NCBI GenBank assembly: GCA_008632985.1
Contig: QPGO01000291.1
Coordinates: 1 to 64,000 of the forward strand
Length of the DNA: 64,000 nt
Direction: 5' to 3'
From: Psammoneis japonica
Taxonomy: Eukaryota
The notes beneath the pieces were generated by a model. The model was given only the letters and a program-made list of their open reading frames with translations. It was not told where the DNA came from and searched no databases. The first letter of the stretch is position 1, and each line of letters starts with the position of its first letter. The position numbers and the translations under genes are program-made. Of this stretch, positions 2,341 to 63,280 are shown piece by piece.

Positions 2341-3510
2341 CACACATTCTACTGTCTAGACTATGGCATGCCTGTCTGTGCTTTGCGACAACTTTTAAAC
2401 CATCCATTTCTTTTTCAGGAGGAGGGGTGTCTTTTCAGTTGCAGAAATCACCAAAAAACGACTTCACCTTCCCCCACCTGGCGAAGCCTGAGCCTCTGCC
2501 TGACAAAGTGGTCTCTGTGTGGCCTCCACCCACCTGGTGGCGGAGAGCATGATGTTGCTTGCAAAGCAAAACAGGCAGCATCCCCGCGGCGGCCTTCTGA
2601 AAGTGAGAGCAGCACAACCACAAAAACCAGAGCTCCCACACCATCGCTCCCTCTGCACCCATTTCAACCTGTGGACACAGCAAGGTCATGCATTGACATC
2701 TGTGATGAGCTCTGCTGTGGCTGCAAACTCTCAGAGAACAGCTCTCTTTCATGGCCCAACAACGGCCCAAAGCAGGAGCGCCAGCGGCACGTGCAAGTGT
2801 CAGCCACCAGGTGCAAAAGAAAGTGAAATTTTCCAACATTCAGTCAAAAACAGGTGGCAATTTTGCTTTTTTGAAACTTGTTGCACAACAGCTCAATGAA
2901 TTGATGTCACTTTTTTCAGAGTGGTGTCATGTTGCACATCGCACATTTCTGAGGCAAAGAAATGGCTTTTGTCTGCAGCGCCTCATCTCATGGCCTCGTG
3001 GCTCTCCCATGTCACGGGTGCAATGTGGAGTTGGTGCACATGAGCCACTGTTGCAAAGTTTTGTGTTGTCTGTGTGTGGAATGATTGTGTTGCTTTTTTG
3101 CTCAGGTTTCTGCTTGCCCTCACTTTTGCACTGTTGCTGTCCCCTTCCAATGCATTGCCCCCCTTCCTTCGACTCGTCATCATGGCCCAGGACATCCACG
3201 ACAATGGCAAGTGCTCTGACATGTGACAAAGGGCAGCAGCTCAAAGCTGGTTGAAAGTCATCTGTGGAGAATTTCTTGTGGTTGCTTCTCAAGAAGCCAC
3301 TGTCTCCATTTTTCAAATAAAAAAAACGAAAGACAAGCAACTTGCCTGCCAGCTTCTTGACAAGCTCGCATGTCCTGTGAGCTGCGCGCCTGTTGCTTGA
3401 CCTTCTCTCAAGTTTTCCAAGATCTTGTGGGTGGCCATGATCACCACCATGTCTCTTGCTTTTCTGTCAGCAGTGGCCTTTGCTGGAAATGACACTCCAG
3501 CCTGCAGCAC

Positions 3511-3889
3511 TGCACTGTGCTCGAAGAATGAGTGCAAACGAAAGTAGAACGAAGTTCAAAAAGTGAAAATTATGAGAATTGTTTCTGCGCAATCATTTTG
3601 GGTTTCTCTGAACGGGTTCTCAATGGCCTGAGCCTTTTGCACTGCTCCTGCAGACAAAAGGCCTTTTGGAGAATGCGATTGTGACAACAGATTGTCCGGA
3701 TGCGATTGACATTGACACATGAGATGTCAACATCATCGCATGATCGCATTTTCGATTCTCAACATCCGATCACTTCTGTGTGATTGATCTGCACTTCGCA
3801 CGAACCCACGATTGACGCACGATTGAAATGTAATTTCATTTGATGCACAGATGTGCACATGTGGTGCGCACATGACAACGCATGTTGCA
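3511..3889 (-). repeat. 3' LTR of Gypsy-1
   Basis: Direct repeat of 8289-8668, preceded on the minus strand by the PPT. Confidence 0.93.
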
Positions 3890-3915
3890 TTCGCCTCCCC
3901 AATTGCACATTAGAG

Positions 3916-6900
3916 TCAGTCATCAAACGGCATCATCCGACGAATGTTGACAGTGTCAATGACGTCACCACGTTTGATCTGCACTGTGCCATCAGCATGC
4001 ACCGTTGTTGTCACATGCGGTCCAACACAGGGCTGTTCTAATTTTTGCGAGTCTTTCTCGAGCAGCATCATTTCTCCTGCTCTGTGCGTGCAAGGAGTGC
4101 GTCGAGCATTCTCTCAAGCATCATTTTTATTTGTGATTTCTTGTTTTTGCTGCTGGATTGGTTTCCAGTCTGCAACATGTTGGACATTAAATGTCATGTC
4201 CCTGTTGAAGACCAGTTGTCCTGGTGCAGCTTGCGCAGTGGCATGATGCGCAGAACGCACCGCAAATGCTGCCGCTGATGACATTCCAGTGAAAGGATCC
4301 TCAGCATCTAGAGGTGTGTGTTGCAAATCAAATGTGCAGAGCATGTTCCCCAGCACTTGATGTGCACGTTCAACAACTGCGTTTGCTTGTGGATTTTGTG
4401 TGGTCATGGGCTTGACTTTGATGCCACAATCATCTTGCACCATGTTTTTAAATTGGTGTCTGATGAACTCACTTCCACTGTCACATGCAATTGACAATGG
4501 CCAAGGATGTCTGCTCAACCATGTCCATTCTAATGGTCCAGCTGCAGTTGTGGATTCCTTGTTTGGAATTTCCACAACTTCAAACCATCCGGTTGCTGGA
4601 TCAATCATTGTCAAACATTTCAGGACTGGGGGTTCTTTCTTTCCCTTATGACGCATTTTGCACGGCCCAACAAGGTCCACACACAGTCGTTCCCATGGCA
4701 CGGATTCCGCGCACTTGTGTTTCTTTTTGAATTTTTGGCACGTCTCACATCTCGACACGTGTTTTCGCATGTCTTCACGCAAGGTGGACCACCACAGGTG
4801 TTGTGAGATTGTTTCTTCTGTTCGATTTGTGCCAGGGTGAAGAAGGTGCGCATGACACCAATCTGTCACTGCCTTTTGCAATGTCCTTGGGACGACAATT
4901 GTGTCCTTGTGACATGTGAGCAACCGGTCTCGCTCGCCTCCACGAAAAGTCTTCACATGAAACGTCTCATTTGACAATTGGGAGAGAATGTCTTTGTCCC
5001 GTTTTTGTTCACAATCGAGAACTTTTAATTTGACGGAAAGACATTGTCGCAGGATTTTGGTGGGACCTTTTCAGCCAACTCTTCTGTGCTGAGGGTTTCC
5101 ACAGGTTCTATTTTTTTCATGGCAAGTCGGCTGATCGCATCTGCGACAACAGACTGTTCGCCTTGCCCTCAAGGTACATCATTTTGGGACTGTGTTCTTC
5201 TGTCATCAGACGCCAATGCATGACTCTGTCCGTTGTGAAATTTTTGTGTGTGAGATTCTTGTGATCCGCACATGTGTTAATCTGTTGGCCAAACAGCACA
5301 TTTTGGAACTCTTTTAACGTCTCCACTGTGGACAACAGTTCTTTTTCCGTTGCAGCACAACGCGTCTGCGCTCCATTCTGCTTGCGGCTGTAGAAGGCAA
5401 TTGGTCGGTTTTTCTGCGTAATGACCGCCCCCAATTGAGAATTGCTCGCATCAGCATGTGTCTCAAAGGGTGTGTTGAAATTCGGGTGTGACAATGACAT
5501 GTCTTTAGAGATTGTGCGCTTCACATTTTCGAAGGCTTTTTGTTCTGTTTCGGTCCATTGCCACTTTGCTTGTGTAGAAGTGAGTTTGGCTAAAGGAGCT
5601 AAAACATGAGATCGTCGAGGCCACATGTCTCGACAGCAGTTGATCATGCCGACAAAGCGTCGCAATTGCTTGCGAGTTTTGGGAGTTGCGATCGCATGAA
5701 TCGCTTCTACTTTTTTCGGAATGGGACTGATGCCGTTGCGGGTGACATGAAAGCCCAGATGGTCACTTCGGGTTTAGCAAAAAAAGACTTCTCGGCGTTG
5801 ACCTTCAATCCGGCTTGTTCTAGGCGCAAGAACACCATCTCAAGCTTCTTGAGGTGGTCTTGAAAATCACCTTTTGCAAGGCACAACATGTCGTCAACAT
5901 GAGTTCTGACGAACTCCAGACCTGCCATGAGCTCACTCATGTGCTCTTGGAAAATGTCTGGAGCTCCACAGATTCCCGTGGGGAGTCCACAGCACTCACA
6001 TTTGCCCCAAGGCATGACGATCATGCACAAATGACGTGCATTCGGTGTCAGCTTGATGTGACAGCATCCCACGTTTAAATCTAGGGATGTTGCATGCATG
6101 AAACCTTCAAGCTTCTGCAGCATGTCCTGAACATTGGGCAGAGGAAACGGAGCACGCACTGACCTCTTATTTAGCTCACGAAAGTTGGATGGAAATCGGA
6201 CTCGACCATTTTTCTTTGGTTGAACAAAGGTTGGAGCTGCCCATTCAGAACAACTCATTTTTCTTAAGACCTTTGACTTGCACAGTCTTTCAACCTCTTT
6301 ACGAGCAGTCGCCTCCAAGGCTTGTGGTGCAGGAAATGGTTTGGCATGATGCGGACTCGCGCCCAGTTTCAACTTTAAATCCACCAGTTTCCCGGTCCAT
6401 TTGCCTGGAGAACCATCAAAAAGGTTTTCAAATCTTTTTAACAAGATGTTCAGCTGCCCCTGCTCTTCAGGAGTTAGATGAGTGGCTGCTGCGGTCACAT
6501 TGTTGAGGTTTGCAGTGTGACAGTCTGAGTCAAGGATCCGATTGACCCTGTCATTAAGACCAATCACTGCACGAGATTCCTCAATGAGATTGGCAATCAA
6601 CTTAAAAACATCGGCATCAAAGAGTGCATCAACATTCTTCGTAGGAGCAGTTGCATCTTCCCATTTGATCTCTTCATTCAAGAAGTCTGACATTGTCCCA
6701 AGACTTGACATTGAGTCGCGTCCCATGATCACATCACAACGACTCGAAGAAGAAGGGGAGTTGTCAACACATGCTGATGTTTCCATCATCTCATGCTTGT
6801 CAAATTCGGGTGAGGAGAATTGGATTTTACATCGACTGTCAGTCATAAAGAGCCCTCCTTTGGTTTCCCAGAGTTTGGTGGTGGACACTTTGGTTCTGAG

Positions 6901-7095
6901 TTTCCGCGTGAATTTGCGCAAAATTGTGGTTGACGATGTTCCGCTGTCGAGGAGAATGCGCAGAGGCTTGTTTTTCGCTTTGCCCAAAGAGGTGTTCATA
7001 CAAGCGACGACCACTGGACCAGCATGGATTGCTTTGGCCCTTTTTCTGAGCTTCCTGACATCCAGCAAGGCGCAAGCCTCCTCTTGCGGTGCAAG
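3916..7095 (-). pseudogene. pol: Gypsy-1 pol (protease LLDSG, RT HVDD, RNase H DAS...FYSRK, integrase VDLVGP / DSGSEF / NAVVER), frameshifted
   Basis: ORF fragments 5707-7068, 5117-5665 and 4114-4977 align with the continuous pol ORF of Gypsy-2. Confidence 0.92.
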
Positions 7096-8252
7096 TCATT
7101 CCTCAGAATCACTGCGCGTCATTTTTTCAAACTGACAATTCTCCTCGTCAAGGGTGTCAGAGTCACAATCTTTGCTCTTGCGCTTCTTGTCGTTGTTTGA
7201 AGAACTTGCTTTGAGCATTTTTTGAACTGCTTGGATCGCCATGGCATTCAACTCTTCTTTGCGAGCAGCATTGTCGTCATCGCGACGAGACCACGTGCGA
7301 CTGCCATTTGAATGGCGCCATTTTGGATCGGGTTCATAGTTCCCATGGCGTTCTTTCGCAAGTCTTTTGATCGACCAGCACTTGTCCGTGTCACGAGTGG
7401 ATTTCTCGCACAAAATGCACCACTTGTTGGACTGAGATTTTTTGGCACCATGTTGGTGACCATTTTTGGAACCACGTTGGGAACCACTCTTGGCTTTTGA
7501 TGCAGCACCACCGCTGCCATCAGCCTTGGCATGAATGCCATCGAATGTGTCCTCTGCAACCTCTGGGCGCTCCAAAAACTCAACCAACTCGTCACAGGTG
7601 TGTTTCAAAATTTCGAAACCCTGGATGGTCGACTGACGCTGCCACTTTCGAGGTGCAAGATTGAAGAGGATGTCCTTGAGCTCGTCGTCCTCGATCTTCT
7701 GCCCCTTCCCAAAGGGAGGATAGAACTTGAGGTCTTTGTTGACTTCCTGGACCCAAGCAGCAAGTTTGCACACTTTCATTGACTCCGGCTTCTTGAGATC
7801 GCGACGCAAATAGCATTTCTGCACCGAAAGTGCGCTCTTGGGAAACACATGCCTCGTGAGATGCTGCAGGCATTTCTCGAAGCTTCCTTCCGCAGATTCG
7901 TCTTCAAGGTTTGCTGCCACATTCTCGAAAGCATGTAGAGCGTCTCCTTGGAGTGACATGCGCATGAGACGGAACTCATCGGCTTGCTTCCTGATGTTCT
8001 GGCCCACTGGAAGTTGATCGTAGCTCTTGAAAAATTCGATGCACTTGGGGACACCTTGCTTCTTACAGTGCTCGACATTGATGGTGTGGGTGCGGCCATC
8101 CTTCTTCTTGGGATGAAAACGTTGCTCCTTCTTGAGGTGCTGGCTCGGTTTGAGGCTCTTCAGCTCGGAATTCGATTCCAGCGGGGTTGAGGAACGATTT
8201 TCTCCTGCCTCAACGAAGTTTTGGCGTTGGTTGCTTGAGGTGAAAGCTTCAT
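7096..8252 (-). pseudogene. gag: Gypsy-1 gag
   Basis: ORF 7096-8007 is near-identical to Gypsy-2 gag. The N-terminal part from the ATG at 8252 is shifted in frame. Confidence 0.85.
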
Positions 8253-8288
8253 CTTGAACTTGTCACCTTCTGTGGTGTGTGCACACAA

Positions 8289-8668
8289 TGCACCATGCTC
8301 GAAGAACGAGTGCAAACGAAAGTGGAGCGAAGTTCAAAAAGTGAAAATTGTGAGAATCATTTCTACGCAATCATTTTGGGTTTCTCCGAATGGGTTCTCA
8401 ACAGCCTAAACCTTTTGCACTGCTCCTGCAGACAAAAGGCCTTTCGGAGAATACGATCGTGACAACAGATTGTCCGGATGCGATTGACATTGACACGTGA
8501 GATGTCGACATCATTGTACGATCGCATTTGCGATTCTCGACATCCGATCACTGACTTCTGTGTGATCGATCTGTGCTTCGTACGAACCCACGATTGACGT
8601 GCGATTGAAACATAATTTTATTTCACACACAAATGTGCGTGTGCAATGCGTGCATGATGCATGTTGCA
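8289..8668 (-). repeat. 5' LTR of Gypsy-1
   Basis: Direct repeat of 3511-3889, bounded by TSD GCAC. Confidence 0.93.
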
Positions 8669-9408
8669 GCACCAACAAGAGCTGCCGAGCACACCATCTT
8701 TCTGCGCTCTGACGCTGCTCGACAGAGGCAGGTTGGGTTGTTTGTCACAGCACCTCTTGAAAAACTTTGCTTTCCATCTTTTGTGCAAAAACAAGCTGGT
8801 CTGCAGACAAGATGGTGTCATCCCTCAGCAGCAGCAACAGCAACAAAAGCGGCAGCGGAAGGGCTGGAGGAGACACTTCTGAGGAGGAGATGCTGGTGGT
8901 GGCAGTGGTGGCACCACCAGCACTGCTCCTCTGACTGAGGCTTCATCTCAATTTTGACAGAAATGTGGCAAGGCAGAGTGCAATTCCTGGAGTGCGCTCT
9001 TGAGTCATTTCTTCCGAGCGTTTGGCGCGCCCCAGAAAAGCTCTGTTCAGCCAGCATTTTCACAGAACCCACAGACTCAAATTTGAAACTGGGTTGCAAT
9101 TGCAGCAGAAGAAAGTTTGAGGAACTCTGAGCTGCCCTTCAAGGTTCTGAATCTATGATTTCTGGAACCCAAGGTGCTGTGCACGTCACATTCTTCCTCT
9201 TTTGAGGGGATTTGTCAGTTCCTGCGTCTATTTTGTCAGATTTCAAAGCTTTGCGGCGCGATGGTGCAAAAACGTGACGCGTGACACGTCGTGACGATTT
9301 ATTTGGAGAGATTCCAGGTAGATTGCGCGCCAACATCCAACATGAGTATCATACATTATCACCGGAGGCGCTGCCGCATGGATTGTGAGATGTGGCGATG
9401 TGGATGAG

Positions 9409-11979: not shown

Positions 11980-13551
11980 TCATTCTGCTTTATCTTCCTC
12001 ATCGGCTTGTCCAAGCATTTTGAAAAGAGACGCTTGAATTTCTCGCTGCCGTTCTTGCGTCATGCCCATTTCCTCCTCATCAAATCCTGCTTCTTCTTCT
12101 TGTTTCTTTTCCAAAGTTCGTCGCACTTGTGCTTGTCGTGGTGGTGATTTCAAACTCTTGGTTTGTTGTTCCACTCCGGGATAATACCACGGTGGCGCCA
12201 TTAAATTCATACCGGGATGAACATCCAGTGCCCACGAATTGGGAATTTGCAAACACGTTTGCAAAAAAATCGATGCCGAATCAAACATAAATTTGGGACG
12301 GGGCGAATTGTGATCGCCCTCGACGATAATCAAATTCTTGTCTCCCGCGTAGCGGGCATAAATGGCTTCGGAATGAGACTTGTTGATGAAATCATCGTGT
12401 TCCCCCGCGACAAAGAGCGCGGGAATAAAGCTCTTGTCCGCGTGCGAAATGGGTGAGATTTGCTTGATATTAAAATTGGCTTGTTTCTTGACACTGGAAG
12501 ACAAGAATCGAATGGCAAGATTCGTAACGACATTCGGGACATTGATTCCCTGTTCACGTCCCTTCTCCACCATTTCTTCACAAAGCAGCGTCAAATCGGA
12601 AAAGGGCGAATCAAGAATCATGCAAGCAATGCTGGGATCCCGATCACCGTGCATGAGCGCCGTGGCGGCTCCCATGGACCGTCCCCAGAGCGCAATCGTC
12701 GACACGACATTGGTCGCACGCAAATGCGCAATGACACACATCAAATCCTCCCGTTCATAATAACCCAAACTCACATACTCTCCATCCGATTTGCCCGAAC
12801 CGGCAAAGTCAAACGAAAAGACCGCCAACCCCAACGATAGTAGGTACGACAGTTGAGGCAACACTTCGACGCGTGCCGAGGAATTGCCGTGCATATAAAT
12901 GACAACGGGAATGCGGTCCGAGGTGCGCTCGACGGGTTCCCAGTGCGAGCATTGCAAATTGAGACCGCGCTTGGTTTTCAGCATAAAGTCGGTTCGGGTG
13001 AATCGACGATTGCAAAAAGTAAAAGCGGGCGGTCCGAGGGCTTCTTCCTGAAATAATAAAATACAGAGAGTGAATGACACAGAATCAACAGCGTAAGAAC
13101 ATCGCAAAGAAATAAAAACTTCATACCAGAGCTCAAAAAAGAAACTACACACACACACCTTGTAATCCGCTCTCGGTGGACGTATAATGGCATTGACAAG
13201 CTCCTGATATCCCAATTTCGCCATTTGAACATAACTCAACTTACGCTGTCGTTCACGCTCCATGGAACTGGTTCGATCGACTCGTTTCCTCCGGCGCTGT
13301 TCATCTGCTTCAGAAGATGACGATCGCCGGTGCTTGTGCGAATCAACACCCAACTGTTCAGGATTATCATTATTACCGGCAGCCACTTCTTGTCCTTCAT
13401 CCAAAGCCTTTTGCGTGTGTTTGGGTTGACAATTGGAAGCCGCCGTGCCCTCATTGACAACCGTGTCGATATCGGGAGAGTCCAACGTCGACATGTTGTA
13501 CGCCTCTTCCAAAATGGCGTCCTCCTCTTCTTCGGACATGATATTACCCAT
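11980..13551 (-). CDS. Alpha/beta-fold serine hydrolase (YqkD/ABHD-like); exons 13551-13159 and 13047-11980
   Basis: HGNSS, DFAGSGKSDG, WGRSMG nucleophile elbow, DDFI and GDHN triad candidates. MGN start suggests myristoylation. In-frame 111-bp GT...CAG intron 13158-13048. Confidence 0.88.
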   Translation of the reverse strand: MGNIMSEEEEDAILEEAYNMSTLDSPDIDTVVNEGTAASNCQPKHTQKALDEGQEVAAGNNDNPEQLGVDSHKHRRSSSSEADEQRRRKRVDRTSSMERERQRKLSYVQMAKLGYQELVNAIIRPPRADYKVCVCSFFFELWYEVFISLRCSYAVDSVSFTLCILLFQEEALGPPAFTFCNRRFTRTDFMLKTKRGLNLQCSHWEPVERTSDRIPVVIYMHGNSSARVEVLPQLSYLLSLGLAVFSFDFAGSGKSDGEYVSLGYYEREDLMCVIAHLRATNVVSTIALWGRSMGAATALMHGDRDPSIACMILDSPFSDLTLLCEEMVEKGREQGINVPNVVTNLAIRFLSSSVKKQANFNIKQISPISHADKSFIPALFVAGEHDDFINKSHSEAIYARYAGDKNLIIVEGDHNSPRPKFMFDSASIFLQTCLQIPNSWALDVHPGMNLMAPPWYYPGVEQQTKSLKSPPRQAQVRRTLEKKQEEEAGFDEEEMGMTQERQREIQASLFKMLGQADEEDKAE

Positions 13552-13584
13552 TGTTCTTGTTGTTGTTGTTGTTGTTGTTGTTGT
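13551..13584. repeat. (TTG/ACA)n microsatellite in the 5' region of the hydrolase
   Basis: ttgttcttgttgttgttgttgttgttgttgttgt. Confidence 0.8.
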
Positions 13585-14154
13585 AATCAATAAAAGAAGA
13601 AGCACAAGTATGGTATGATGTGGTTTACTCAATCAACGAGAACGAACGTCGTCATTGTGAACGAGACGTCGTAATTGATCGTGGCTCACCTCTCGCTGCT
13701 AACCGCTAACGGTCGAAAACAATCGCCTACCGGTACGTACGTACGTAGGTTAATTACGAGACGTACGTGGCGTTCAAAATCATCGATATTCAGACATTTC
13801 CGACAATGACTGGCGGTTCTTATCATTAATTACATTATGCGTACATAAATATAAGAAGTGTATCGTTTTATCTTCCTCAGCCAATCAGATTGCCTCATTT
13901 TTCTCGGATCTTTCTCCCTGTAGATTTCTACGTAGCCAGTACCGTCTGTACCGGTCCGTGTTTGGAAACCGACAAAAAGTGCCGACCTTTTTTCTCACGT
14001 TGCATCGGTGGTCGGTGGATGGTGCTCAGTTCCGTCGTTGTTTTAGATCTTACTACGAGCTGAGATTCTTGCATCGCAGTCACCTTGACTCGGATTGCAT
14101 CTGGAGAGACTCGTTGCTCTTTGATTTTTTGATACTTGACTTGTGCAAAAAATC

Positions 14155-15612
14155 ATGGCTTTAGCTTTATTGCGAATGCCAATATGCGGCAGAACCGTCT
14201 TGTTGCGTCGCAGCAGTAGTGTGTTGCGCCGCAGCTACACGACAACACGATGTTTATTATCATCAGAGTATCCCCCGCACACACTCTATCCCATGCCGGC
14301 ACTCAGTCCCACCATGGAAACGGGAACCATTGCGAGTTGGAGTATTGCCGAGGGTGATGAATTTGGTGCCGGTGATGTCCTTTGCAGCATTGAAACCGAC
14401 AAGGCTACGATTGACTTTGAATCTCAAGATGATGGGATTTTAGCCAAAATCCTCAAAGAGGGTGAGAGTGCACGTGATTTGGCCGTGGGAGTGCCCATTT
14501 GTGTGGTTGTGGAAGAAGCGGAGGATGTAGCGGCCTTTGCAAACTACAGTGCTCCGGAAGAAGCAACTCCGCAAGCTGCTCCAGAAGCTACGGCTCCAGC
14601 ACCAACTGCTACTACTACTACTACACCCGTCGATCGCAAGGTTGCAGATGAACATGTTCTCATGCCGGCGGCAAGGCACTTGTCTCAATCCAAGGGTGTG
14701 GATGCTACCGTTTTGGCTGGATCTGGAAAGGATGGTCGAGTCACCAAGGGCGATGTCTTGCAAGCTCTAGCCAATGGCACGCACATGCCTGCACTATCTA
14801 CTGCCACCACGGAAACCGTAACAACAACAACAGCTGCTGCGGCGGCAGCTCCACCTCCTGCAGCTCCGATCCAAGCTACCATTCCCGAGGTGAACACGTT
14901 TGGAGAATACCAAGATGTTCCCAACAACAACATGCGCAAGGTGATTGCCCGTCGCTTGACGGAAAGCAAAAGCACCGTCCCTCATTACTACACAGCCGTG
15001 GAGGTGGAACTCGATGAGGTGTTGCAACTCCGCAAGGAGCTGGCATCCAAACACGACGTCAAGGTATCCGTCAATGACTTGATTATTCGCTCGTGTGCAC
15101 TGGCACTCCGTGATGTTCCCGAAGTCAATGCCTCGTACGATCCCGCCACAGACAAGGTGCAATTGCAAGACTCGGTCGATGTCAGTGTCGCCGTGGCGAC
15201 ACCGACCGGTCTCATTACGCCCATTGTCAACAACACGGACCAGTTGGGACTTTCCGACATTTCGAATAAAATCCGAGACTTGGCAACCCGTGCCCGGGAC
15301 GGTGCACTCCAACCACACGAATACCAAGGCGGGACCTTTACGGTTTCCAACTTGGGAATGTTTGGCATGGACGAATTCAGTGCCGTGATTAATCCACCGC
15401 AAGCGGCCATTTTGGCCGTGGGCGGTGGGAGCCGCCAAGTCGTACCGACGCCCTACGTGGAGGGAGCTGAGGAGCAGGCCAAGCCATCCATTAAAACCAT
15501 AATGACGGCACGGCTCAGTGCGGATCGGAGGGTGGTGGATGAAGCCACGGCGGCGCTCTTTTTGTCAGCCTTTCATCATTATCTTTCCAAGCCGCAATTG
15601 TTGCTATTGTAG
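14155..15612 (+). CDS. PDHX: Mitochondrial pyruvate dehydrogenase E2-family protein, probably the E3-binding protein (protein X)
   Basis: Arg/Ser-rich presequence, lipoyl domain (MPALSPTM...IETDKA), subunit-binding domain (GSGKDGRVTKGDV), acyltransferase-like domain (GGTFTVSNLGMFG...INPPQ). The catalytic DHR motif reads DRR. Confidence 0.85.
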   Translation: MALALLRMPICGRTVLLRRSSSVLRRSYTTTRCLLSSEYPPHTLYPMPALSPTMETGTIASWSIAEGDEFGAGDVLCSIETDKATIDFESQDDGILAKILKEGESARDLAVGVPICVVVEEAEDVAAFANYSAPEEATPQAAPEATAPAPTATTTTTPVDRKVADEHVLMPAARHLSQSKGVDATVLAGSGKDGRVTKGDVLQALANGTHMPALSTATTETVTTTTAAAAAAPPPAAPIQATIPEVNTFGEYQDVPNNNMRKVIARRLTESKSTVPHYYTAVEVELDEVLQLRKELASKHDVKVSVNDLIIRSCALALRDVPEVNASYDPATDKVQLQDSVDVSVAVATPTGLITPIVNNTDQLGLSDISNKIRDLATRARDGALQPHEYQGGTFTVSNLGMFGMDEFSAVINPPQAAILAVGGGSRQVVPTPYVEGAEEQAKPSIKTIMTARLSADRRVVDEATAALFLSAFHHYLSKPQLLLL

Positions 15613-15644
15613 TAGTGAATTGTAGCAAACGATTTTGAAAACAT

Positions 15645-16700
15645 TTACTGCTCTAGTACAGTGTCTTTTACGTCTGTGTGGAAGCTGGTGCCTTCAAGGC
15701 GTCCCCTTGTGGAGTGTGAATCCCACATTAGAAGGAATTCATAGAGGTCCTCGTTGTGATCCAACAAGTCGCTTTGATCAACCTTGTCCAACCACTTTTT
15801 CGTCAGAGCTCTGCCCCAATGTGGTCCAAAACAACATGATGTTGAGCTTGTTGCAACTTTCATAAAGCCTGCAAGCATTGTATTCCTCACTGCTCTGGTG
15901 ATGGAGAGCAAAATGGATGCAATCATGTGCATGCTTTTTAGGGGCAGAAGCCATCTTGGTTGTCCAGCAAGCAGGATCATGGTTCAGACCTGCCTTTCAA
16001 CCCCTTTTGAATCCGAGGAGCAACAGGGTTTTCAACTTGCTTGGCCTTGTTGTGAGGTCCAGCCAAGTTGTCCAATTTTGCATTTTTGCCTGCTGTGGCA
16101 GATTGAGATTCCTCTTTGTTGACAAATTTCCAAGTGGACCTTGTGCTCAACCTTGACAGGGAAAAATGATGGGCAGCACATGATGTGGCAGCCCTGCAGA
16201 TTGTTGGAGAGTGCGCACAAGGCTCAGAAGAAGCGGGGCAGCCCAACAACACCCTCTGCAGACTTTCAGAAAGAGGGCAAAGTTAAGGAAACAAGGATTG
16301 CAACTACAACAAGAGCAGTGCTGAGAAATGGACAGCAAGGTGCACTCACCAAAGCAACATGTTGAGAGGAAGAGTCAAAAACATCGCATGCATTGTCTTG
16401 TTGAAGAGAGAAGGCAATGCCCGCAACACCAGCCAGAAGCAGGATGACATCAGAAGCAAAATTGCAAGGGAGGAGCAGCACAATGAGGACATCAGAGGCA
16501 CCACAATATAGAAGTCCCCCAACAGCTCACATGGCTGTTCCTGAGCTCAGCAAGTGCAGAGCAGGGACAAATGTTGCTGATCCGTTCAACGCAAGAAACA
16601 CCTGCCTGTGTGTTGTTTTTCTTTTGTGTGACCAATCACGAGGCACTGTGGAAAGTGCTGAGAACACACACACCTTTTTGTGCCATACATGTGCATGACT
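15645..16700 (-). pseudogene. Unidentified decayed ORF or repeat relic; 15870-16700 is strongly TA- and CG-depleted
   Basis: Composition switch inside an intergenic region. Fragmented hydrophobic reading frames on the minus strand, no family recognised. Confidence 0.3.
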
Positions 16701-17143
16701 GCCACTCCATCAATGAGAACGTGATGCTCTGATTATGGATCAATGTTTCTGTTTGAATGCTTCTTTCGTCATTTTTGCGGGGTCCTTCGGGTCGGTCGTC
16801 CGTTGGTCGCTCGTTAGTCGTGGTTCCTAATTGTTGGCGATTCGGGACTGCAATTCATACATGGCTCTCCAGTAGAAACCCTACATACGTAAATTTGGTA
16901 CTACATTCATGCGGATGACGTCGTTTCTCGCACCACGCGATTTTCAGATTTCCCTCCAACACGCTCTTTCTTGCAAACGACACAAGAGCAAGCTGTTGCG
17001 AGAAGCAAAACGACAACATTTTTTTTTCCAACAATCACAACCGTGGCGTTACTCTCAATATACAAATATTTCCAAAAAGTGATGAGAGTATCCGTTGTTG
17101 CCTTTTTATCCTCTCATCTCGTTTGGGAAATCTCCTTACGTAC

Positions 17144-18237
17144 ATGAACGGCAACATTCGTTCGGATGAGCGCATTGTGTTTTTCCCCACCATTGCACGA
17201 GACGCGAGCAATGATACAGCGACTGTATTCGAAGTACCCATTCACGGTTGGATCTTTGAACCGGATCGTCGAGACAAGCGACGACGCGCTCTCTTGCACT
17301 TGTTGGGCCGTGCCTACAATGTGTCGAGGACGGATCAAGAAAAAAAGGATTTATTAAAAAGACGCATGGGTCCCTTCTTGGTGGACAATGAACGATGGAA
17401 GACTCCGTTTGTCAAGATTGTTTGGAACAACAAAGATGACGAGTTGCAACAAGTCGTGCATCGTGTGTCACCGTCCAAAAAGAATGGACACTTTCGTGAT
17501 GTTGTGCAATTCGTGGCAGCAGACGGATGCAAAAACGGTGAATCATTGTCCTTGACACAACAATTGTGTTGTGAAGCCATTTTACGTGATTCCGATAAAC
17601 GACGATTTGCGGGAACCGTTCATCTCTTGGCGGATACAGGAGTTTCTGTGATTTCAGACATTGACGATACCATCAAGGTGACCAATGCCACCCACACGAA
17701 AACGTTGATTCGAAACACCTTTCTCAAGGAATTCCGTGCTGTTCCGGGAATGGCAGAATTGTATTCCAAATGGAAGGACAGCATGATGCTAGTTTTCACT
17801 TTGTCTCGTCGAGTCCGTGGCAATTGTATGAGGAGATGGAAGATTTTCGAAAACGCGAGGGTTTTCCGGACGCCACGTTTCACCTAAAGAGTGTCCGACC
17901 CAAGGATCGCACTCTTTTCAATCTCTTTGCCGATCCCTTCAAGGCCAAAATGGCGTCCATTACCCATATCGTAGAACGATTCCCAAATCGCACGTTTGTG
18001 TTGGTGGGTGACTCTGGAGAAAAGGATCCAGAAGTATACGGACAGTTGGCCAAGATGTTTCCTGAACAAATTCATCGAGTCTTTATCCGGGATGTCGGTC
18101 TCCAGAACAACCTGACGGCGCGTATAGAGGAAGCGTTTGACGGCGTTCCTAGTGAAAAGTGGAGCACCTTTACGGATCCTTCCAAAGTCGAGCTTACCAT
18201 TGATGCAAACGAAACCGCAGAGACACTCGCTCCATAG
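17144..18237 (+). CDS. APP1: APP1-type phosphatidate phosphatase (DUF2183), with one frameshift near 17775 (assembly indel or pseudogene)
   Basis: GVSVISDIDDTIK (DxDxT), FHFVSSSPWQLY, VLVGDSGEKDPEVY, IFIR-like VFIRDV. ORFs 17123-17887 and 17770-18237 overlap in different frames. Confidence 0.85.
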
Positions 18238-19569
18238 AATCCGAATCTGAGATACTTTCCAGTGCAGCAAGACGGACTGAGAATATAACCGCGATAGACT
18301 TACAATAGCTACATTTACACCATCGTCCGTCTTTGTTGTCTTCTGGGTTTCCTTTTTGGATTCTCCTCGTTCAAACGGATGCAAGCGTGTCCGACGTGTC
18401 AATCCCGAGGGAGTCGAGGATCACCAAAGCGGATGTTAAACCTTATTGGCGCTATTCGTTAATGTCACAGAGTTATTGCCTTTATCAACCGACATTTTCT
18501 GGAGAATGACGAGGGCAAGCACTACCGCATTGCCCGCTAACCCTTTGTCTATCTGCATTGTTGCCGAAAGCTTTTGAATACAGGACACTCAAACACAGCG
18601 CACTGTTTGATCGTAAGGGTCGTCAAAAACGGCGGGAAAGCGTCCGAATTGTTGGTTCCTCCTCTCTTACGGTAGTCCTAGGTGGAACTCTCTACCACAT
18701 CGAAGTCTGAAACCGAAAGATTTTGGATTGTCGCCCTCGCTACTACCGGTATCAGAAAATAGAGGAGAGATGATTGCTTGCACCAATCATTTTGCTGCAT
18801 TTTTTACCTCTCTATTAAGTGAGTTTTGCGCCGGGCGTCCGAATTAATTATAACATATAACGGTTGTTTTTTCGGAACAGGGTGCTACCGGTATGTACGG
18901 TACGCACTTCTGCGCGACCCACGCGACCTGACTAATGCGCGTTGGGGCCAGAGTAGTGCGTGGTGCTCTGGTTGTTTTGCTTCTGACCGTTCTGTCTTCT
19001 GTGAGGTTTCATGAGGTCATCTGTGCATGCACATTGATGTTGTCTAAGGCGAGCTGCGTTGGCTTAAGTGAACGTGTAAAAATGCGAAATTTGCGCACTG
19101 TTGCCGTTGTCTTTGCCAAATGGTTGGTCATCATTTCTGTCCACACTCGATCCGCGGCGGCTTGAGTGAAAGTCCAGGTGCATGATGTTGACGCATTGAT
19201 GCGGTTGTCTTTGCTAAACAGTTAGTTGTAACTTGCTCCATTCCATCATTTCTGTCCATGCTTGTTCTGAAGGGTCCTTGCTTGCTCCTTCTCCTGCTCC
19301 GTTGCTCCCGCTTCTTCCATCTCCTCCTCGGTGAAAAATCTCCCGGATGACTGTGGTGGTGCCGCCGCCCACGCTGCCTGTTGCTCCGTTTTGTGTGACA
19401 TTTGCGTTCACGTGTTCTTTGTTTGTTGATTGAAATCCATTCGACGTTGTGTGGCGCATGTGTGGAATTCTGCGCAATGTGCTGGTCTAATCGAAATTTT
19501 CGATTTTACAAAATTTTTGCATTTTTGCGGTGGTTGGTTTTGCCAAATAGTTGCACAGTGGTTGGGCAT

Positions 19570-22325: not shown

Positions 22326-22706
22326 TGCAACATGCGTTGTCATGCACGCATTACATGTGTGTGTCTGTGTGTTAAATAAAAGCACATTTCAATCGCACGT
22401 CAATCGTGGGTTCGTACGAAGTACAGATCAGCCACACAGAAGTGATCGGATGTCGAGAATCGCAAATGCAATCGTACGATGATGTTGACATCTCATGTGT
22501 CAATGTCAATCGTATCCGGACAATCTGTCATCACGATCACATTCTCCGAAAGGCCTTTTGTCTGCAGGAGCAGTGCAAAAGGTTTGGGCCATTGAGAACC
22601 CGTTCGGAGAAACCCAAAATGATTGCGCAGAAACAATTCTCATAATTTTTTCACCTTTTGAACTTCGTTCTACTTTCGTTTACACTCGTTCTTCGAGCAC
22701 AGTGCA
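22326..22706 (+). repeat. 5' LTR of Gypsy-2
   Basis: Direct repeat of 27125-27505. Confidence 0.95.
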
Positions 22707-43117: not shown

Positions 43118-43327
43118 GCAGAGCCCCACCGTTGAATGTACGTCACAAAATCAATTTATAGGAATTAAGATGAAGTTAATCCACACACGTAAAAATTTAA
43201 CTTTGACATGGAAATCTTCTACGAGCTGATGCAAAACTGGTTCTCATAGTTTGCCATGATTGCAATCAATCTAAATGGTTGGAATGCCACAGGGCTCAAA
43301 AGGCCCAGCATTTTTCCGGGGGAGGCA

Positions 43328-43866: not shown

Positions 43867-45095
43867 TGAGCGGCATGACACTGACAGGTCTGCTGGGGCT
43901 GATTGTTCTGTTTCTGCTGTTGGTGCTGCACATGCCAGTTGCACTGTTGATGCTGGGCATTGGCTTCATTGGCACCATTGCCAATGCAAACAATTCATGC
44001 TGATTGGTGCGGGGCTGATCAAGCTTGGGCCTGTGGCTGGAAAGTTGCCTGCTCCAATCTTGCTGCAGAAACCTTCAATGCCAGCCATCTCCAACTTCAA
44101 TTTGCTGGTGATCTCTGTGTTTTTTTTGTTTTGATGAGCCATCTTGTTGGTGCTTTGGGCATGTCAAAAGATCTGTTTGCAGCAGCCTGCCATTGCACGG
44201 TCATGTCATCTGCTCAGAGGGCTTGCTTCCACCATGATTGCTGCCTGTTCTGGTTTTGCCACACTTTCAGGCTGCTTGCTTGCCTCTGCCATCACCACAA
44301 GCTGTGCCGTGCTGCCCAAATAAAGCAATGCAAATGTGATGATGGGCTGGCAACTGGATCGGTCACAGCCGGCAGCACACTTCTTGGCTTCCTGATCCTG
44401 CCCTCTGGTGGCATGATCATTTGTGCTGTCCTTGCCAAGCAATGAATTGGGCATCTGTTCATGGTGGGGATCATTTCAGGAGTCTTTCTGAAACTGCTTT
44501 TCACAGGTGCCATTTATCTGGTGGTCCACTGCAACCCCAAAGCTGGACCTCAAGGTGAAAAGTCAAGCTGTGAGGACTGCATGTCAGCCCTGTGGCACTC
44601 AATTCCAATCATTGCAGTTGTGCTGATCACACCATCGGTGGCATGCACACTGGCTTTCACTCCCATCGGAGCCTCCTCTGTCAGAGCTTTTTTGACATTT
44701 GTTGTTGTGCTGTTGCATCATTCACTGTCACTCAAAAAGATCCATTTTGCATTTCTTGAAACAATGAGCACCACATCAATGGTCTTCCTGATCATCATCA
44801 GCGCGTTTGTGTTTGTTCCATTCATGTCATTGACACCAAGCTGCCCAGTCAGCTTGTTTTGTTCCTGACCTTGTTGCCTGTTGGCATGGTTGGGGTGCTT
44901 TTGGTGATCATTGCAACTCATCTGTTCCTGGGCATGTTTCTGGATCGCCTTTTCCATTGTTTGGAACATCATGGTGATGTGCAAAGCATTGAATGCATGG
45001 TTGGGGTGCTTTTGGTGATCATTGCAACTTGTCTGTTCCTGGGCAAGTTTCTGGAAAGCATTGCCATGCTGGTGCTGGCCATTCCCATTGTGGCG
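43866..45095 (+). pseudogene. dctM: Bacterial TRAP transporter large permease, decayed and 3'-truncated
   Basis: LFLLLVLHMPVALLMLGIGFIG, GMSKDLFAAA, DDGLATGSVTAGSTLLGFLILPSGGMII.AVL, LFMVGIISG, FTP..ASSV, LFLGMFL/ESIAMLVL.IPI match DctM consensus segments. Confidence 0.85.
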
Positions 45096-45569
45096 TGGTG
45101 CAGTCAGTCCTCATCTTTCGAAAATGATTGTGGTCTTGGCCTTGTAAACTTAGAACTGGAAACTGCAATGTGGATTTGCTCGAAACAAACTGCAGCAATT
45201 CTGTTCTGCAAGGCAAGTCCTGTTTGAAAACCTTGCAATGACCTTTGATGCAATGTCGCCCATCACGGCATGGAGAGGCAGGAGTTCACCTGCCGAAATG
45301 GCAGACAAAGTCAACAACACGAAAAAACATTCTTCATTCCAGACACTCATGCAAAGGTGGAAGATGCTCTTCTGGAAGATTGAAACACACACAAGCAAGC
45401 ATGAGCCACATGAGCCATTTGGTCTTCCTCTTCAGGAAAATGCATTGGAAGCTCACTGAGTGGAAGCCCGGGTTGCAACATGAACAAGCAATCACACTCT
45501 TCTTCATCGGGAATGTGAAGACTTGGCAGGCATCCACTTGCGCTTGTAGAGGCAGTCTCCGCTGAAATG

Positions 45570-59700: not shown

Positions 59701-60500
59701 TCTCACTGCCCAGACCATCTCTGGGCTGGTGGAGTCTCGCTGGTTCTTGAATCTTGACAGGTGACAACAACAGACTCATTTTCTTGTTGTTTCACTTGCA
59801 GCACATTCTTGAGCAACTTTGTCAGCATGTGGAACAGACAACGACCCCTGGCAGTGTTGAATGTCAGGGAATGCATTGGTTTCAACAATTTGATTGGGTC
59901 ATCCCTGATCTTTTTGCAGCTTGGATCACCCAGAACCCTGGTCCTCACATGGTTTGCACAGCAGCAGTCATCCAGGATTAAGGTGAATGCCTTTGATTTG
60001 TTCTCCTTGAAGTGCTTCAGTTTTGTGCAAAAATTCTTGCACATGGATTGGCACTTGCATTCCAACTGCTTGTTGTTGTGCTCCTTCTGTCTCACATCAT
60101 CATCACATGCACTTGAGTCTTTCTTGAGTTCAATTGCCAACTGTTTGAGTTTTGGCTTTTTTCTTCTTGAAGTCAAGGTGCTTCACATCCTCCAAGGACC
60201 TTGCTGTGCATTTGCCCTGCTTGAAATCCTTCTCTGTGTGTCTGCAGAGCTTCCTCTTGATGTCTTCATTTGTTGCACTGTGTGTGTTGCTGTTCAGGGT
60301 TGAAGGGTGGAACTTCATCTTGGGTTGAAAGGACTTCTTTTTCTTGGTGTGGCTTTCATTACCTCTGCCACCACCATGACCCTTGTGTTGGTCACGGCCT
60401 CTTCCATGCCTTCCAGGTCCTCTGCCACACATGGTGCAGAAATCAATGATCATGTGGTCTTCTGATGAGATGGCAAGCACTCAGCATGTGCAAATGTGAC
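56760..60500 (-). mobile_element. Ty1/Copia relic: gag (GR-rich N-terminus, CHCCGKEDH knuckle), integrase and start of RT; most of RT missing
   Basis: DHAPEVEHSIETIKER integrase motif and SLKAFRQEGHDAFKKEMKQLH...SER...MFL RT lead-in. Order gag-IN-RT is Copia-type. Confidence 0.75.
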
Positions 60501-63280
60501 TCTTTGGAGTGAGTGTTGAACCAATGAGTCAATGTCACCAAAAGGGAATCCTGCGAGGCTTCCTGCGCCACTCGTTGCACTTTCCCTGGTCTCTGTGTTT
60601 GCCATGGTTTGCCTCACATCTAATGCAGAATGTGTGCCAATGGATTGTTGGATGTCAACAGACACCACTTGTTGCTCTCAACAGTTTGGATGACAATCCA
60701 ATGACAATCCAAATGATTCACTCCAAAGAGTGAGCATAAAAAGTTGGTGAGATTGAGATTGATGACAGAGAAAATCCTCCAAAGAACAGTCATCAGCCCA
60801 CCACATCAGGATTCAAAAGATGCAACTTCATTTCCAGGTCACTCTGTGCCCTCAAGCTAGATGCTCTGACATCAAGTGCCCTGACAAGTTCCTTCAAATC
60901 AATCAAAACAGTGGGTGCAGGTCAAGCACTGGATGCATGCTTTGGAAAATGTGGTGCACCAGAGAATTCACTCCAATTGCAAAAGGGATGTTTCATTTGT
61001 GGATCAAAGTGTGTGGGCAATTAACTCCAATCACAATCACCACCTTTGTGCAGTGTGGTTGAAGAGCAAGTTGAATTTTGCAATCCAACATTTGACAAGG
61101 CAAATGAGGACACAAATCATCAATGTCTGCCAAAGCTCATGCCTTGAGCACAGAGCTTTCTTGTCAAGTGATGCAACTGTGGAACATTGGAAGGGTCAAC
61201 AGCAGTTGCCAGCAGAACAAGCTTGTTGACAAGAGAATGTGACTCTGGAACAATGCACAAACATCATCCTTGGATTGAGCATGTTTTGGGTCATCAAAGA
61301 ACTGATCCAGATCAAATGTTGCATGGCCACAAGTGTCGTTGTGTTGGTGAACAGTGCATCATTGAAACACAAGCTGCATCTTGGCAAGGGCATCAAAGAT
61401 GCTCTTTGCTGTCTTGGGGTTCACCACAGTTGAAGTGCTCAATGTTTTTGGTCATGAACACACGGAAGTGTGGCACACTTCAGTGGGAAATTGTGCACAA
61501 ATGACAACACTTTCAGGATAAAAAAATGCAATGGACTTGCTCAGCTCACAAAACCCAAGTGAATCAAGGGAGGAGTTGAGGCACAGCAGATGCGTGTGCT
61601 GCAACAAGGCCACAACCTGATGGAATGGCAACAGCAAGAGTGTCAAGTGCAGGGAACCTCTCTGCAAACCAGTGACAGAGACAACACATGCACCAGCAAG
61701 AGCAAGTGACAAACAGATCTCAGAGAGACATGTGCTCATCTGTCTGAGCCTGATGCCTGACCATCATCTGCCCAAAGTCCAGCCACACACACCAGGGCAG
61801 ATCAACTGACACTTGTGGCAAGTTCTGGACAAATCCAAAGAAAACTAAAGAAAACCCTGCATCTTGCCAGTGCCTTCAGAGAAATGAAACAGACAATTCT
61901 TTTTTAATGATGACATGGATTTTGCTGCATTTTCACAAATGTTGCATTTAAATTTGTTTGTTCTCAACAGATTGGGGGGAGTGGAAACCTTTGCACAGAA
62001 AGCCAAGACTCTTTGCAGTGCCAAGTGTTGGGCAGACTTGCTTGGGTTGGCAAGCACAGCACCAGAGAGAGGCAAACTGGAGGATGATGAGGAGGAGCAA
62101 AAGGAAATGAGAGTCAACTTAAGAGCATGGAGCATTCATCATGGAAATCTGCAATCTGCCACTTTTGGAAAGTCCAGGAACAACCAGCAAACCAGGTTGC
62201 TCTTGTCTCCAAACATTTGAGTGACTGCTTGGGTTGCTGATTGCAGAGGCACCCAGACAAATTCTTTCCACAAAGAGATGTTCACGTGGCTTGGGATCCT
62301 CTTCTTCACCTCTGAACATCAAGACGACCAATGAGAGCCAAGGGGTTGCTCCCTGGTGAGGTGTTGACATTGCACTTCCAAGGAAGGGAGTGTTCTTCAA
62401 TGCCGCAGCCCCAAAATCTCAGTTGCAACAGGGCTCAGCTGCCCTTGAAAGGCAGTGTGTGTGGGTTGACTGCTGCCGCTGCAACTGCTGCTGCCACTGT
62501 CATTGTGAATGCCACCATCACAACTGCTTGCCATTGCAGCTGCTGTTGTTGTTGCAGCTGCTGCTGTTTTGACCACTGACATTGTGCAGCTGCTGCTGCA
62601 GTTTGCAGCTGGCACACACACCATTGCAACAGCTGCTGTCATTTTCACTGCTGCACTGTGGCTTCTGCCATTGCAACCACTGCCATTGCAGCTGCCATTT
62701 TTGTGACTGCCGCCATTGCGACTGCTGTCATTGCGACCACTCTTGCAAAGAGATGGCACTCAGTGGAGCAGGGATTGCAAAGGCAGTCAATCACAGCCAA
62801 CTGCTTCTGTTGCAAGGACTGCCATTTCTGCTGCTGCTGCTGCTGTTGTGACCACTCCTGCCATTGTTGTGACCACTCCTGCCATTGTGACTGCTGCCAT
62901 TGCAGCTGCCACTGCTCAGATTGCTGCTGCTGAAGCTTGGCTGTGCTTTTGCTTTTTGCATCAATTGGTGGCAAAATTCTCTCCACATCTTGCTCATTCT
63001 TGAAATCCCATTTTGCCTGCCTGCACCCTTCCTCTGTGTCTGGCACCCTCACGCAAGTGCTCCTTTGCTTGTTTGCTGTGGCACTCAATTCTGCCACCCT
63101 CTCCTTGAGCATGGCAAGCCTCCTGCCTGGGGCATCCAAAAGGTGGGCGCATTTTGCTTTCGTGCCAACTCTTCTTCTTTAGCATCACACTTAGCCCCAA
63201 ACAGGGCTTCTTGTCCTTTGGCATGGGTGACTCTTCTGTCAGAGCCCTTTCCACTGCCAACGCTGCCGGTTCCGCCACGG
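60500..63280. repeat. Unclassified TA/CG-depleted relic DNA including low-complexity (GCT/GCC/ATT) repeats at 62470-62935
   Basis: Composition and tandem motifs such as tgccattg and gaccactcctgccattg. No protein family recognised. Confidence 0.5.

Follow-up and report, generated by a model that had tools for sequence, protein, structure and literature searches.

Introduction

In repeat-induced point mutation (RIP), C is changed to T at CpA, a reaction that creates TpA together with stop codons and that needs both a duplication and a premeiotic stage. Editing by ADAR/ADAT and APOBEC3 enzymes takes place on RNA or on pre-integration cDNA and leaves strand-biased clusters, the APOBEC changes being C→T and G→A. 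The present work concerns a 64,000-nt stretch of DNA from Psammoneis japonica (contig QPGO01000291.1, referred to as a whole as the window), in which three Ty3/Gypsy retrotransposons and several further blocks have lost nearly all of their TpA steps in favour of TpG and CpA. An earlier note on this DNA had described the direction of change as opposite to that of RIP, and this is borne out by the TpA content of the blocks (0.10 of expectation) as well as by the polarity of the substitutions. The reading that we consider likely is a post-insertion, locally targeted TpA→TpG/CpA hypermutation of transposons and other non-host DNA in this diatom. Results on locality and on borders hold for this one 64-kb stretch.

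The closest described system is that of Mettrop et al. (bioRxiv 10.64898/2026.01.13.699255), whose main text reports de novo TpA→TpG/CpA hypermutation of integrated viruses in mutation-accumulation lines of Bigelowiella natans. Two integrated viral regions mutate there at ~6 × 10^-7 per site per generation, ~1,000-fold above the genome; 230 of the 231 mutations, found with Illumina data, were A→G or T→C, all at TpA, and the activity appeared in only some of the lines and in single-copy DNA. The footprint consists of TpA-depleted, CpA+TpG-enriched clusters (cut-offs Rho TpA ≤0.43 and CpA+TpG ≥1.52), the TpA-depleted coding sequences are enriched in reverse transcriptase and DDE domains, and an ADAT2-like DNA adenine deaminase is proposed by the authors. 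The remark in the earlier note that no description of such a process was known is thus overtaken, the same signature having been reported de novo in B. natans. For diatoms, our literature searches found no report of TpA hypermutation, the passages met in PMC4504042, PMC2806351 and 10.1101/2025.10.24.684338 being irrelevant to it.

Results

TpA-depleted blocks and their borders

The earlier note had proposed to compute observed/expected (o/e) ratios of TA, TG, CA and CG in sliding windows genome-wide; here the 64-kb window was examined, in 1-kb steps and by two-state segmentation on TA versus TG+CA. Seven TA-depleted blocks were recovered (2401-9292, 15755-16730, 19083-26559, 27482-29177, 30811-31717, 32611-34211 and 43276-63295), with borders almost exactly as claimed. 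Pooled over 39,569 bp, the blocks hold 261 TA against 2,689 expected (o/e 0.10), with ratios of 1.70 for TG, 1.71 for CA and 0.44 for CG. Conversely, the host-state DNA (16,835 bp) holds 702 TA against 1,181 expected (o/e 0.59), the other ratios being 1.17 (TG), 1.14 (CA) and 1.06 (CG). The most extreme values were obtained for the 20-kb block at 43276-63295 (TA 0.05, CG 0.16, TG 1.85, CA 1.88), where 71 TA were counted as compared with a mean of 1,379 (sd 27, minimum 1,307) in 200 shuffles.

The passage into host sequence is abrupt. At 2398, eight TA fall within the outer 150 bp, which are host DNA, and none within the inner 600 bp; at 34212, the inner 300 bp are free of TA and the outer 300 bp hold 21. 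For the seven blocks as a whole, the depletion ends within ~150 bp of host genes. The composition is also evident in the stop codons, as TAA and TAG together number 183 against 956 TGA in the 39.6 kb of blocks, the corresponding figures for host DNA being 258 and 331. With TAA and TAG lost, TGA is left as nearly the sole stop in the blocks and the six frames are full of long spurious open reading frames (ORFs), of which the 20-kb block holds 62 of at least 110 aa.

Polarity of the substitutions

Self-comparison of the window delimited three Ty3/Gypsy elements, each with long terminal repeats (LTRs) and an intact 4-bp target-site duplication (TSD). Gypsy-1 (3503-8668, minus strand) has LTRs at ~3508-3889 and 8286-8668 that are 85.8% identical (TSD GTGC); Gypsy-2 (22326-27505, plus strand) has LTRs at 22326-22706 and 27125-27505 with 93.4% identity (TSD CATG); and Gypsy-3 (28951-33680, plus strand) has LTRs at 28951-29318 and 33311-33678 with 92.4% identity (TSD CAGG). 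RVT_1, RNase H and integrase domains are found in both Gypsy-1, where pol is split into three ORFs accordingly and the reverse transcriptase motif reads HVDD, and Gypsy-2, which has an open pol ORF of 1,066 aa with CVDD. Gypsy-3 is a more distant relative (66-68% to the other two internally) and a mosaic, with TA depletion strong in some patches and weak in others. The 5' 4.2 kb of Gypsy-2 are hypermutated; at its 3' end lies an unmutated patch (26564-27480, plus strand, 917 bp; TA o/e 0.98, CG 1.48) that takes in most of the 3' LTR, whereas the 5' LTR and all surrounding DNA are mutated.

Both LTRs of one element are copies of one template and are identical at insertion. In Gypsy-2, 24 of 381 aligned LTR positions differ, 20 of them derived from TA, three from CG and one from neither. 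Similarly, Gypsy-3 shows 18 differing sites among 367 aligned, of which 16 are TA-derived (12 with TG in one LTR and CA in the other), one is CG-derived and one other. In the older Gypsy-1 pair (376 aligned), the 37 differing sites divide into 18 TA-derived, 12 CG-derived and seven others. Gypsy-2 and Gypsy-3 taken together thus give 36 TA-derived, four CG-derived and two other sites among 42. Because repeats that were identical at insertion differ almost only at TA-derived sites, the hypermutation is, as judged from these pairs, a DNA-level, post-integration event.

The same comparison bears on A-to-I editing of retroelement RNA by a U-preferring, ADAR/ADAT-like enzyme, with the edits made permanent when the RNA is reverse-transcribed, ahead of integration. 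In its favour, the clearest cases in the window are retroelements, and ADAR has a 5' U preference (as cited in the main text of bioRxiv 10.64898/2026.01.13.699255). Still, two LTRs made from one RNA template should not differ at 16-20 TA-derived sites per pair, both strands are hit equally and without clustering, and DNA that is not of retroelement origin is affected as well (the TRAP-transporter pseudogene, the helicase element and flanks without identity, all described below), which leaves the RNA route with a next to negligible probability. ADAR-type hyperediting before integration was rejected on the same 16-20 differences per LTR pair, and APOBEC-type editing of cDNA on the wrong base change and on the runs test given below (z = 0.01).

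Two further lines of evidence concern the ancestral state. Gypsy-1 and Gypsy-2 oppose CA to TG at 72 dinucleotide sites, an outcome that needs a TA (rarely a CG) intermediate, and in a table of all six LTRs the sites at which the Gypsy-2 3' LTR has retained TA are variously TG and CA in the others. The hand alignment on which the earlier note had relied (26741-26830 against the reverse complement of 4184-4273) could be reproduced in every detail: the 90 nt hold 11 TA and differ at 13 positions, of which ten are changes of a TA (six to TG and four to CA), two are CG decays and one is GAG→GGG. The motifs that it had cited are likewise present, namely CVDD in Gypsy-2 (TGT at 25092), HVDD in Gypsy-1 and HVVLSR at 19763 on the minus strand. 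Outside homologues of the elements (120 sequences, 54-60% identity) have a normal Tyr content of 2.9-5.3%. An alignment column was called a conserved Tyr when at least 80% of these homologues have Tyr; one alignment took in 42 of the 120. At such columns Gypsy-2 reads Y 5, C 11, H 7 and F 1, that is Cys or His at 18 of 24, and Gypsy-1 reads Y 2, C 12, H 6 and other 2, that is Cys or His at 18 of 22; other conserved residues are kept (Trp 16 of 17, Cys 7 of 7, His 9-10 of 10). At the codon level, TAY→TGY/CAY is the only simple reading of this loss. On three independent lines, the LTR pairs, the alternation of TG and CA at the same site and the outside homologues, TA is then placed as the ancestral state, in agreement with the polarity that the earlier note had assigned.

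A composition that is TA-poor by origin, or selection against TA/UpA, would dispense with a mutator altogether, and TA is indeed mildly under-represented everywhere, including in host DNA (0.59). However, sister LTRs diverge at TA sites, and in a functioning element selection would preserve the catalytic and conserved Tyr residues that have been destroyed here. Among Gypsy relatives from metagenomes, moreover, 78 of 78 loci are TA-normal (o/e 0.59-1.18), and several of these have lost CpG strongly. TA poverty is thus no inherent trait of the family, and CpG decay by itself spares TA. An explanation without any mutator is accordingly extremely improbable.

Properties of the mutation process

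The unmutated patch of Gypsy-2 was used as a near-ancestral reference for Gypsy-1. Its 78 TA correspond in Gypsy-1 to 36 TG, 34 CA, eight TA and no CG, so that 70 of the 78 have been lost, compared with changes at 18 of 55 CG and 22 of 650 other positions. The absence of CG as a product follows from the palindromic target, because one hit removes it on both strands. Between Gypsy-1 and Gypsy-2 overall, 459 of 500 differences are transitions, those of the C→T kind being attributable to a separate CpG decay. The order of TG and CA outcomes along the sequence gave 36 runs as against 36.0 expected (z = 0.01), and no strand-coordinated clusters of the APOBEC or kataegis type were seen in this runs test. 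Sites are hit singly and independently, on either strand at equal odds.

The flanks of the dinucleotide matter. Among surviving TA, TTAA is enriched 3.8-fold and CTAA/TTAG 3.3-fold, and ATAT is depleted to 0.09-fold (chi-square p = 1 × 10^-28). At polarised sites the numbers mutated and surviving are 35 and 1 for RTAY, 27 and 2 for mixed flanks, and 8 and 5 for YTAR (Fisher p = 0.003). RTAY sites thus mutate fastest and YTAR sites slowest.

CpG decay is a second, ordinary process in the same blocks, and the TpA rate is ~6 times the rate of CpG decay in the same DNA. TpA loss tracks this decay patch by patch. Within the region of the unmutated patch, CG losses number one in Gypsy-2 and 18 in Gypsy-1, compared with 39 and 60 elsewhere (p = 0.003); all three CG losses between the Gypsy-2 LTRs fall in the LTR that loses TA; and the patches of Gypsy-3 that retain TA retain CG too.

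As for the chemistry, the leading candidate within the hypermutation reading is enzymatic deamination of an adenine preceded by T, by an ADAT2/TadA-like deaminase, to which we would give about an even chance. ADAT/TadA substrates have an invariant U33-A34 context, which matches TpA. Alternatively, under the same targeting, it could be the thymine of TpA that is oxidised by a TET/JBP-type dioxygenase as a silencing mark on repeats, to 5-hydroxymethyluracil (5hmU) and then to 5-formyluracil, and that is now and then read or repaired as C, with T→C at TpA on either strand as the result. Such a route, which we regard as unlikely, would leave the same signature as adenine deamination (palindromic target, single-hit immunity, strand symmetry), and its co-localisation with CpG decay fits a chromatin mark. 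In dinoflagellates, according to passages of PMC11572971, 5hmU takes the place of T preferentially in TA and TC, is concentrated on repeats and contributes to the silencing of transposable elements. The TC preference, however, predicts TC→CC, and CC/TC pairs number 15 in the comparison of Gypsy-1 with Gypsy-2, where the TA classes number 55-72. 5hmU is also only weakly mutagenic, which counts against this route.

Targets outside the retrotransposons

The affected DNA extends well beyond the three elements. Block 1 (2401-9292; TA o/e 0.12, CG 0.68) consists of TA-free sequence at 2401-3502 and 8669-9292 with Gypsy-1 in between, so that Gypsy-1 is nested in older TA-free sequence. A degenerate element on the minus strand at 19083-22325 carries a PIF1-family helicase ORF (19782-22241), with HVVLSR following a frame break at 19763. 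The label 'Helitron' used in the earlier note stands with regard to the PIF1-type helicase and is unconfirmed otherwise, no Rep domain having been detected; in 19-22.3 kb only PIF1, AAA_30 and AAA_19 were matched, and Helitron_like_N, the Rep (HUH) endonuclease domain, gave no match at E ≤ 0.05 in a scan that covered 63 of the 81 flank ORFs and left out the plus-strand ORFs of this segment. The spacer between Gypsy-2 and Gypsy-3 (27506-28950) and the flank beyond Gypsy-3 (33681-34211, 0 TA in the last 300 bp) are TA-depleted as well, as is the intergenic block at 15755-16730 (TA o/e 0.12, CG 0.20). For the flanks at 2401-3502, 8669-9292, 15755-16730, 27506-28950 and 33681-34211, the scan gave only sub-threshold, chance-level matches (Cas_Csy4, RPS31). 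Within the spacer, 27798-28293 comprises about four tandem copies of a 129-bp unit that are 86-88% identical.

In self-comparison of the window, the 20-kb block was free of internal repeats and resembled none of the Gypsy elements. Its first part holds a pseudogenised bacterial-type TRAP transporter on the plus strand (43445-45224), recognised from DctQ (43445-43795, E 4e-12) and DctM (44446-44865, E 2e-10, and 44760-45224). The bacterial insert claimed by the earlier note is therefore recognisable, as bacterial-type sequence, at 43.4-45.2 kb, and the other 18 kb matched nothing: in the scan of 62 ORFs of at least 110 aa and 98 ORFs of 70-109 aa, DctQ and DctM were the only credible Pfam matches, with none in 45.2-63.3 kb. 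Matches to jr-ZPR1, COG5_N and DGKD_4H fell below the cut-off. As a DNA outgroup the transporter proved useless, blastn of 43300-45400 against plasmids giving a single match of 136 nt at 69%. The best phmmer match of the DctM fragment among 1.84 billion representatives has 41% identity, which is too distant for nucleotide polarity and leaves amino-acid composition and one conserved Tyr→Cys change as usable evidence. Of 150 matches listed, the 73 of at least 400 aa were aligned; relative to these homologues, the TRAP fragments have 0-0.7% Tyr against 2.6%, 4-6% Cys against 1.2% and 3.4-4.3% His against 0.9%, and one Tyr that is conserved in 86% of the homologues is Cys here.

Run X1, which consists of accurate reads, gives information on copy number. 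An X1 contig of 1,227 nt and depth 33 matches 15631-16859, and hence the TA- and CG-depleted block, with no mismatches, and no second contig of at least 90% likeness to 15755-16730 was found in this run. The block is single-copy today, yet TA-depleted. The neighbouring host genes are represented by two allelic contigs of ~30 each, or by a total of 50-65, as compared with the single contig of depth 33 at 15631-16859; the region may be hemizygous, or the other allele may be more than 10% divergent. For the Gypsy regions, conversely, 7,934 X1 contigs reach ≥90% likeness, and their depths add up to thousands.

These figures are relevant to whether the trigger is sequence repetition, sensed by homology as in fungal RIP and perhaps in meiosis, rather than chromatin or foreignness. 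The three Gypsy families are high-copy, as the 7,934 contigs attest, and the borders of the depletion follow element ends. Homology sensing would nevertheless have to account for the block at 15755-16730, covered by a single contig of depth 33 with nothing else at ≥90%, for a 20-kb block that has no repeats in the window, and for the repeated 3' end of Gypsy-2, which is spared with its LTR when the sister LTR is mutated. In B. natans, too, a single-copy region derived from a nucleocytoplasmic large DNA virus mutated in clonal asexual lines, as stated in the main text of bioRxiv 10.64898/2026.01.13.699255. We judge a repetition trigger to be quite improbable. Fungal RIP as such was rejected for its wrong direction and for the single-copy target.

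The reads also bear on a sequencing or assembly artefact, in which a modified base at TpA would be miscalled strand-specifically as CA or TG. Strand-random TG and CA are what such miscalls would yield, and the platform of the assembly is not on record. Against this, the X1 unitigs, with k-mer depths of 30-65 and allelic bubbles in host genes, reproduce the TA-depleted block without a mismatch over 1,227 nt, and X1 contains 63% of the words sampled from 14001-24000, a stretch that is only 41% host-state. Background and CpG differences, furthermore, rise in step with TA loss (Gypsy-1 above Gypsy-2 and Gypsy-3), and the signature was obtained from Illumina data in B. natans (main text of bioRxiv 10.64898/2026.01.13.699255). 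An artefact is hence very improbable.

Host genes and neighbouring sequence

The window is nuclear DNA of a diatom. Relatives of its PDH-E2 gene (14155-15609) reach 71% identity, and among the 120 matches listed all 14 that bear an organism name belong to diatom genera (Cylindrotheca, Nitzschia, Fragilaria, Seminavis, Fragilariopsis, Mayamaea and others). All ten variant positions of X1 within this gene, at 14409-15555, are third codon positions, which points to a second allele or a close paralogue under purifying selection. An LHC gene lies at 1298-2238 on the minus strand, and further host genes encode an ABCG transporter, an alpha/beta hydrolase, an APP1 phosphatase, two DUF7467 proteins, a Pro/Thr-repeat protein and Vta1. 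The alpha/beta-hydrolase ORF (11983-13632, minus strand) runs through an apparent in-frame intron encoding a hydrophobic, low-complexity stretch of ~40 aa, and in this case an open frame is no sign of an intron-free gene.

The segment at 37516-40196 is a GC-rich (64%) tandem array that encodes a (P-T-P-x)n repeat protein of ~830 aa; several frames are open on both strands and its TA o/e is high, at 1.6. The protein looks like a secreted or cell-surface protein of the host. It is followed at 40197-43117 by two neighbouring genes with a Cys-rich DUF7467 domain, the second of which has at its end about ten copies of a Pro/Ala/Lys-rich unit (APSMAGKKG...). From the stop codon of this second gene it is 160 bp to the start of the TA-depleted 20-kb block.

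Discussion

The observations can be combined as follows. A transposon or other non-host DNA would insert into the diatom nuclear genome and then undergo locally targeted hypermutation, in which 5'-TpA-3' gives way to TpG or CpA. Either A of the palindromic step can be the one at which A:T becomes G:C, and one hit destroys the target on both strands. Targeting would operate through a silenced, 5-methylcytosine (5mC)-marked chromatin state or through 'foreignness', and not through sequence homology, because a single-copy block is affected, a repeated patch is spared and TpA loss is coupled to CpG decay. Adenine deamination by an ADAT2/TadA-like enzyme would supply the base change. The predicted outcome is defence: Tyr codons would become Cys or His codons (YxDD→CVDD/HVDD) and TA-rich signals would be erased. 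As a probable consequence, elements are inactivated by missense change, 18 of 24 conserved Tyr having been lost in Gypsy-2, among them the Tyr of YxDD. Since TAA and TAG vanish and no stops are created, ORFs stay open, and the 1,066-aa pol of Gypsy-2 looks intact but is not. Defence as a function, which the earlier note had also invoked, is suggested by the targeting together with the missense load.

Several points weigh against the reading of a targeted, post-insertion TpA mutator, or limit it. The earlier claim of a two-stranded mutator confined to mobile or foreign DNA is supported, while 'foreign' is shown only for the first 2 kb of the 20-kb block and is unproven for the 18 of 20 kb that lack identity. 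Raw-read support, which the earlier note had proposed as a check, was found in the form of the mismatch-free 1,227-nt contig, yet it comes from one run that may be the assembly's own sample, with the platform not on record, and it therefore amounts to consistency and not to independent proof. Mutations in B. natans were seen arising de novo (main text of bioRxiv 10.64898/2026.01.13.699255) and no de novo event was seen here. The per-site rates relative to background, 135-, 262- and 778-fold from the three LTR pairs, rest on 1-7 background differences per pair, have confidence intervals from 47 to 30,000, and place the rate roughly at 10^2-10^3 times background. Hypermutated relatives numbered 0 among the 78 metagenome loci, in a search in which one of the two scan patterns contains YY and is biased against hypermutated copies. 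Strand choice at mixed sites favours a pyrimidine 3' of the A by 58 to 43, which is not significant (p = 0.16), so that a preference at -2 was not separated from one at +1. The 917-bp patch of Gypsy-2 is repeated, lies within mutated DNA and is nevertheless spared, which the proposed targeting does not by itself predict; an intact copy may recently have converted it, or the local chromatin may be exceptional. Lastly, five of the 16 variants listed in host regions are TA↔TG/CA changes whose direction is not polarised, and there may be low-level activity on host DNA.

Annotation would be affected, as gene finders are predicted to over-call in TA-depleted blocks and intact-looking ORFs of transposable elements can be enzymatically dead. 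A natural TpA-directed A:T→G:C activity on chromosomal DNA would be of interest for base editing. Some diatoms are genetically tractable, and the enzyme could thus be sought by knock-out. A more tentative proposal, to which we would give somewhat less than an even chance, is a homologous, heterochromatin-coupled DNA base-editing defence in at least two lineages of stramenopiles, alveolates and Rhizaria (SAR), the diatoms and the chlorarachniophytes. Such a defence would mirror RIP while requiring neither repeated sequence nor sex, and would act on RTAY in silenced DNA with one A:T→G:C change per site until the invader is inert. On this proposal, chromosomal DNA would be the substrate of a natural TpA-specific adenine deaminase or thymine modifier, and TA-free, stop-poor 'dark' blocks in protist genomes would be the fossils of its activity.

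Comparison with known systems

Deamination of 5mC takes place in the same blocks, yields the same products TG and CA and is spatially coupled to TpA loss. It cannot, however, remove TA, it is ~6-fold slower per site here, and related elements elsewhere have lost CpG and are normal in TA. Dinoflagellate 5hmU, as far as described in the passages of PMC11572971, resembles the present case in its SAR lineage, its preference for TA (and TC), its presence on transposable elements and its link to silencing, the difference being that it is an epigenetic mark and is not reported to be a mutator.

Editing by ADAR/ADAT and APOBEC3 likewise consists of deaminase-type transitions directed against selfish nucleic acids, and the 5' U/T preference of ADAR matches TpA. 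In contrast, the changes in P. japonica are post-integrational, strand-symmetric and unclustered, and they include DNA that is not of retroelement origin. With RIP the likeness is closer in form: in both, transitions at one dinucleotide on both strands approach saturation, only selfish DNA is affected, borders are sharp and coding capacity is inactivated. In the present case, however, TpA is destroyed rather than created, the GC content is maintained and no stop codons arise. Single-copy DNA (15755-16730) is affected here, moreover, and the repeated 3' end of Gypsy-2 is spared.

The system of B. natans is the closest. In both organisms the changes are A→G or T→C at TpA, fall on both strands, are confined to non-host DNA and affect single-copy DNA, and every diatom block lies within the footprint cut-offs given in the main text of the preprint (bioRxiv 10.64898/2026.01.13.699255). 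The rate measured there de novo, ~10^3-fold, compares with indirect LTR-pair ratios of 135-778 in the window. The kb-scale mosaic in Gypsy-2 and Gypsy-3 is compatible with, and not diagnostic of, an intermittent activity such as that of the B. natans lines. Conversely, the host there is a chlorarachniophyte (Rhizaria) and here a diatom (Stramenopila), and the hypermutable regions reported in that main text are TA-rich (Rho 0.45 or higher), whereas the present blocks are near saturation (0.05-0.17). A term search of the preprint's main text returned no flank preference, no link to CpG decay, no LTR-pair dating and no diatoms. Beyond that text, the present data constrain the mechanism in that the changes postdate integration, hit each site once, fall evenly on the two strands without clustering, favour TAY/RTAY and are coupled to CpG decay. 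P. japonica would thus join the distantly related B. natans as a host of a mutational genome defence whose first report dates from 2026, and LTR retrotransposons and bacterial-type DNA would be added to integrated viruses as targets of it. The signature matches the B. natans type, and what is new here is the host lineage, the target class (LTR retrotransposons and bacterial-type DNA) and the mechanistic detail.

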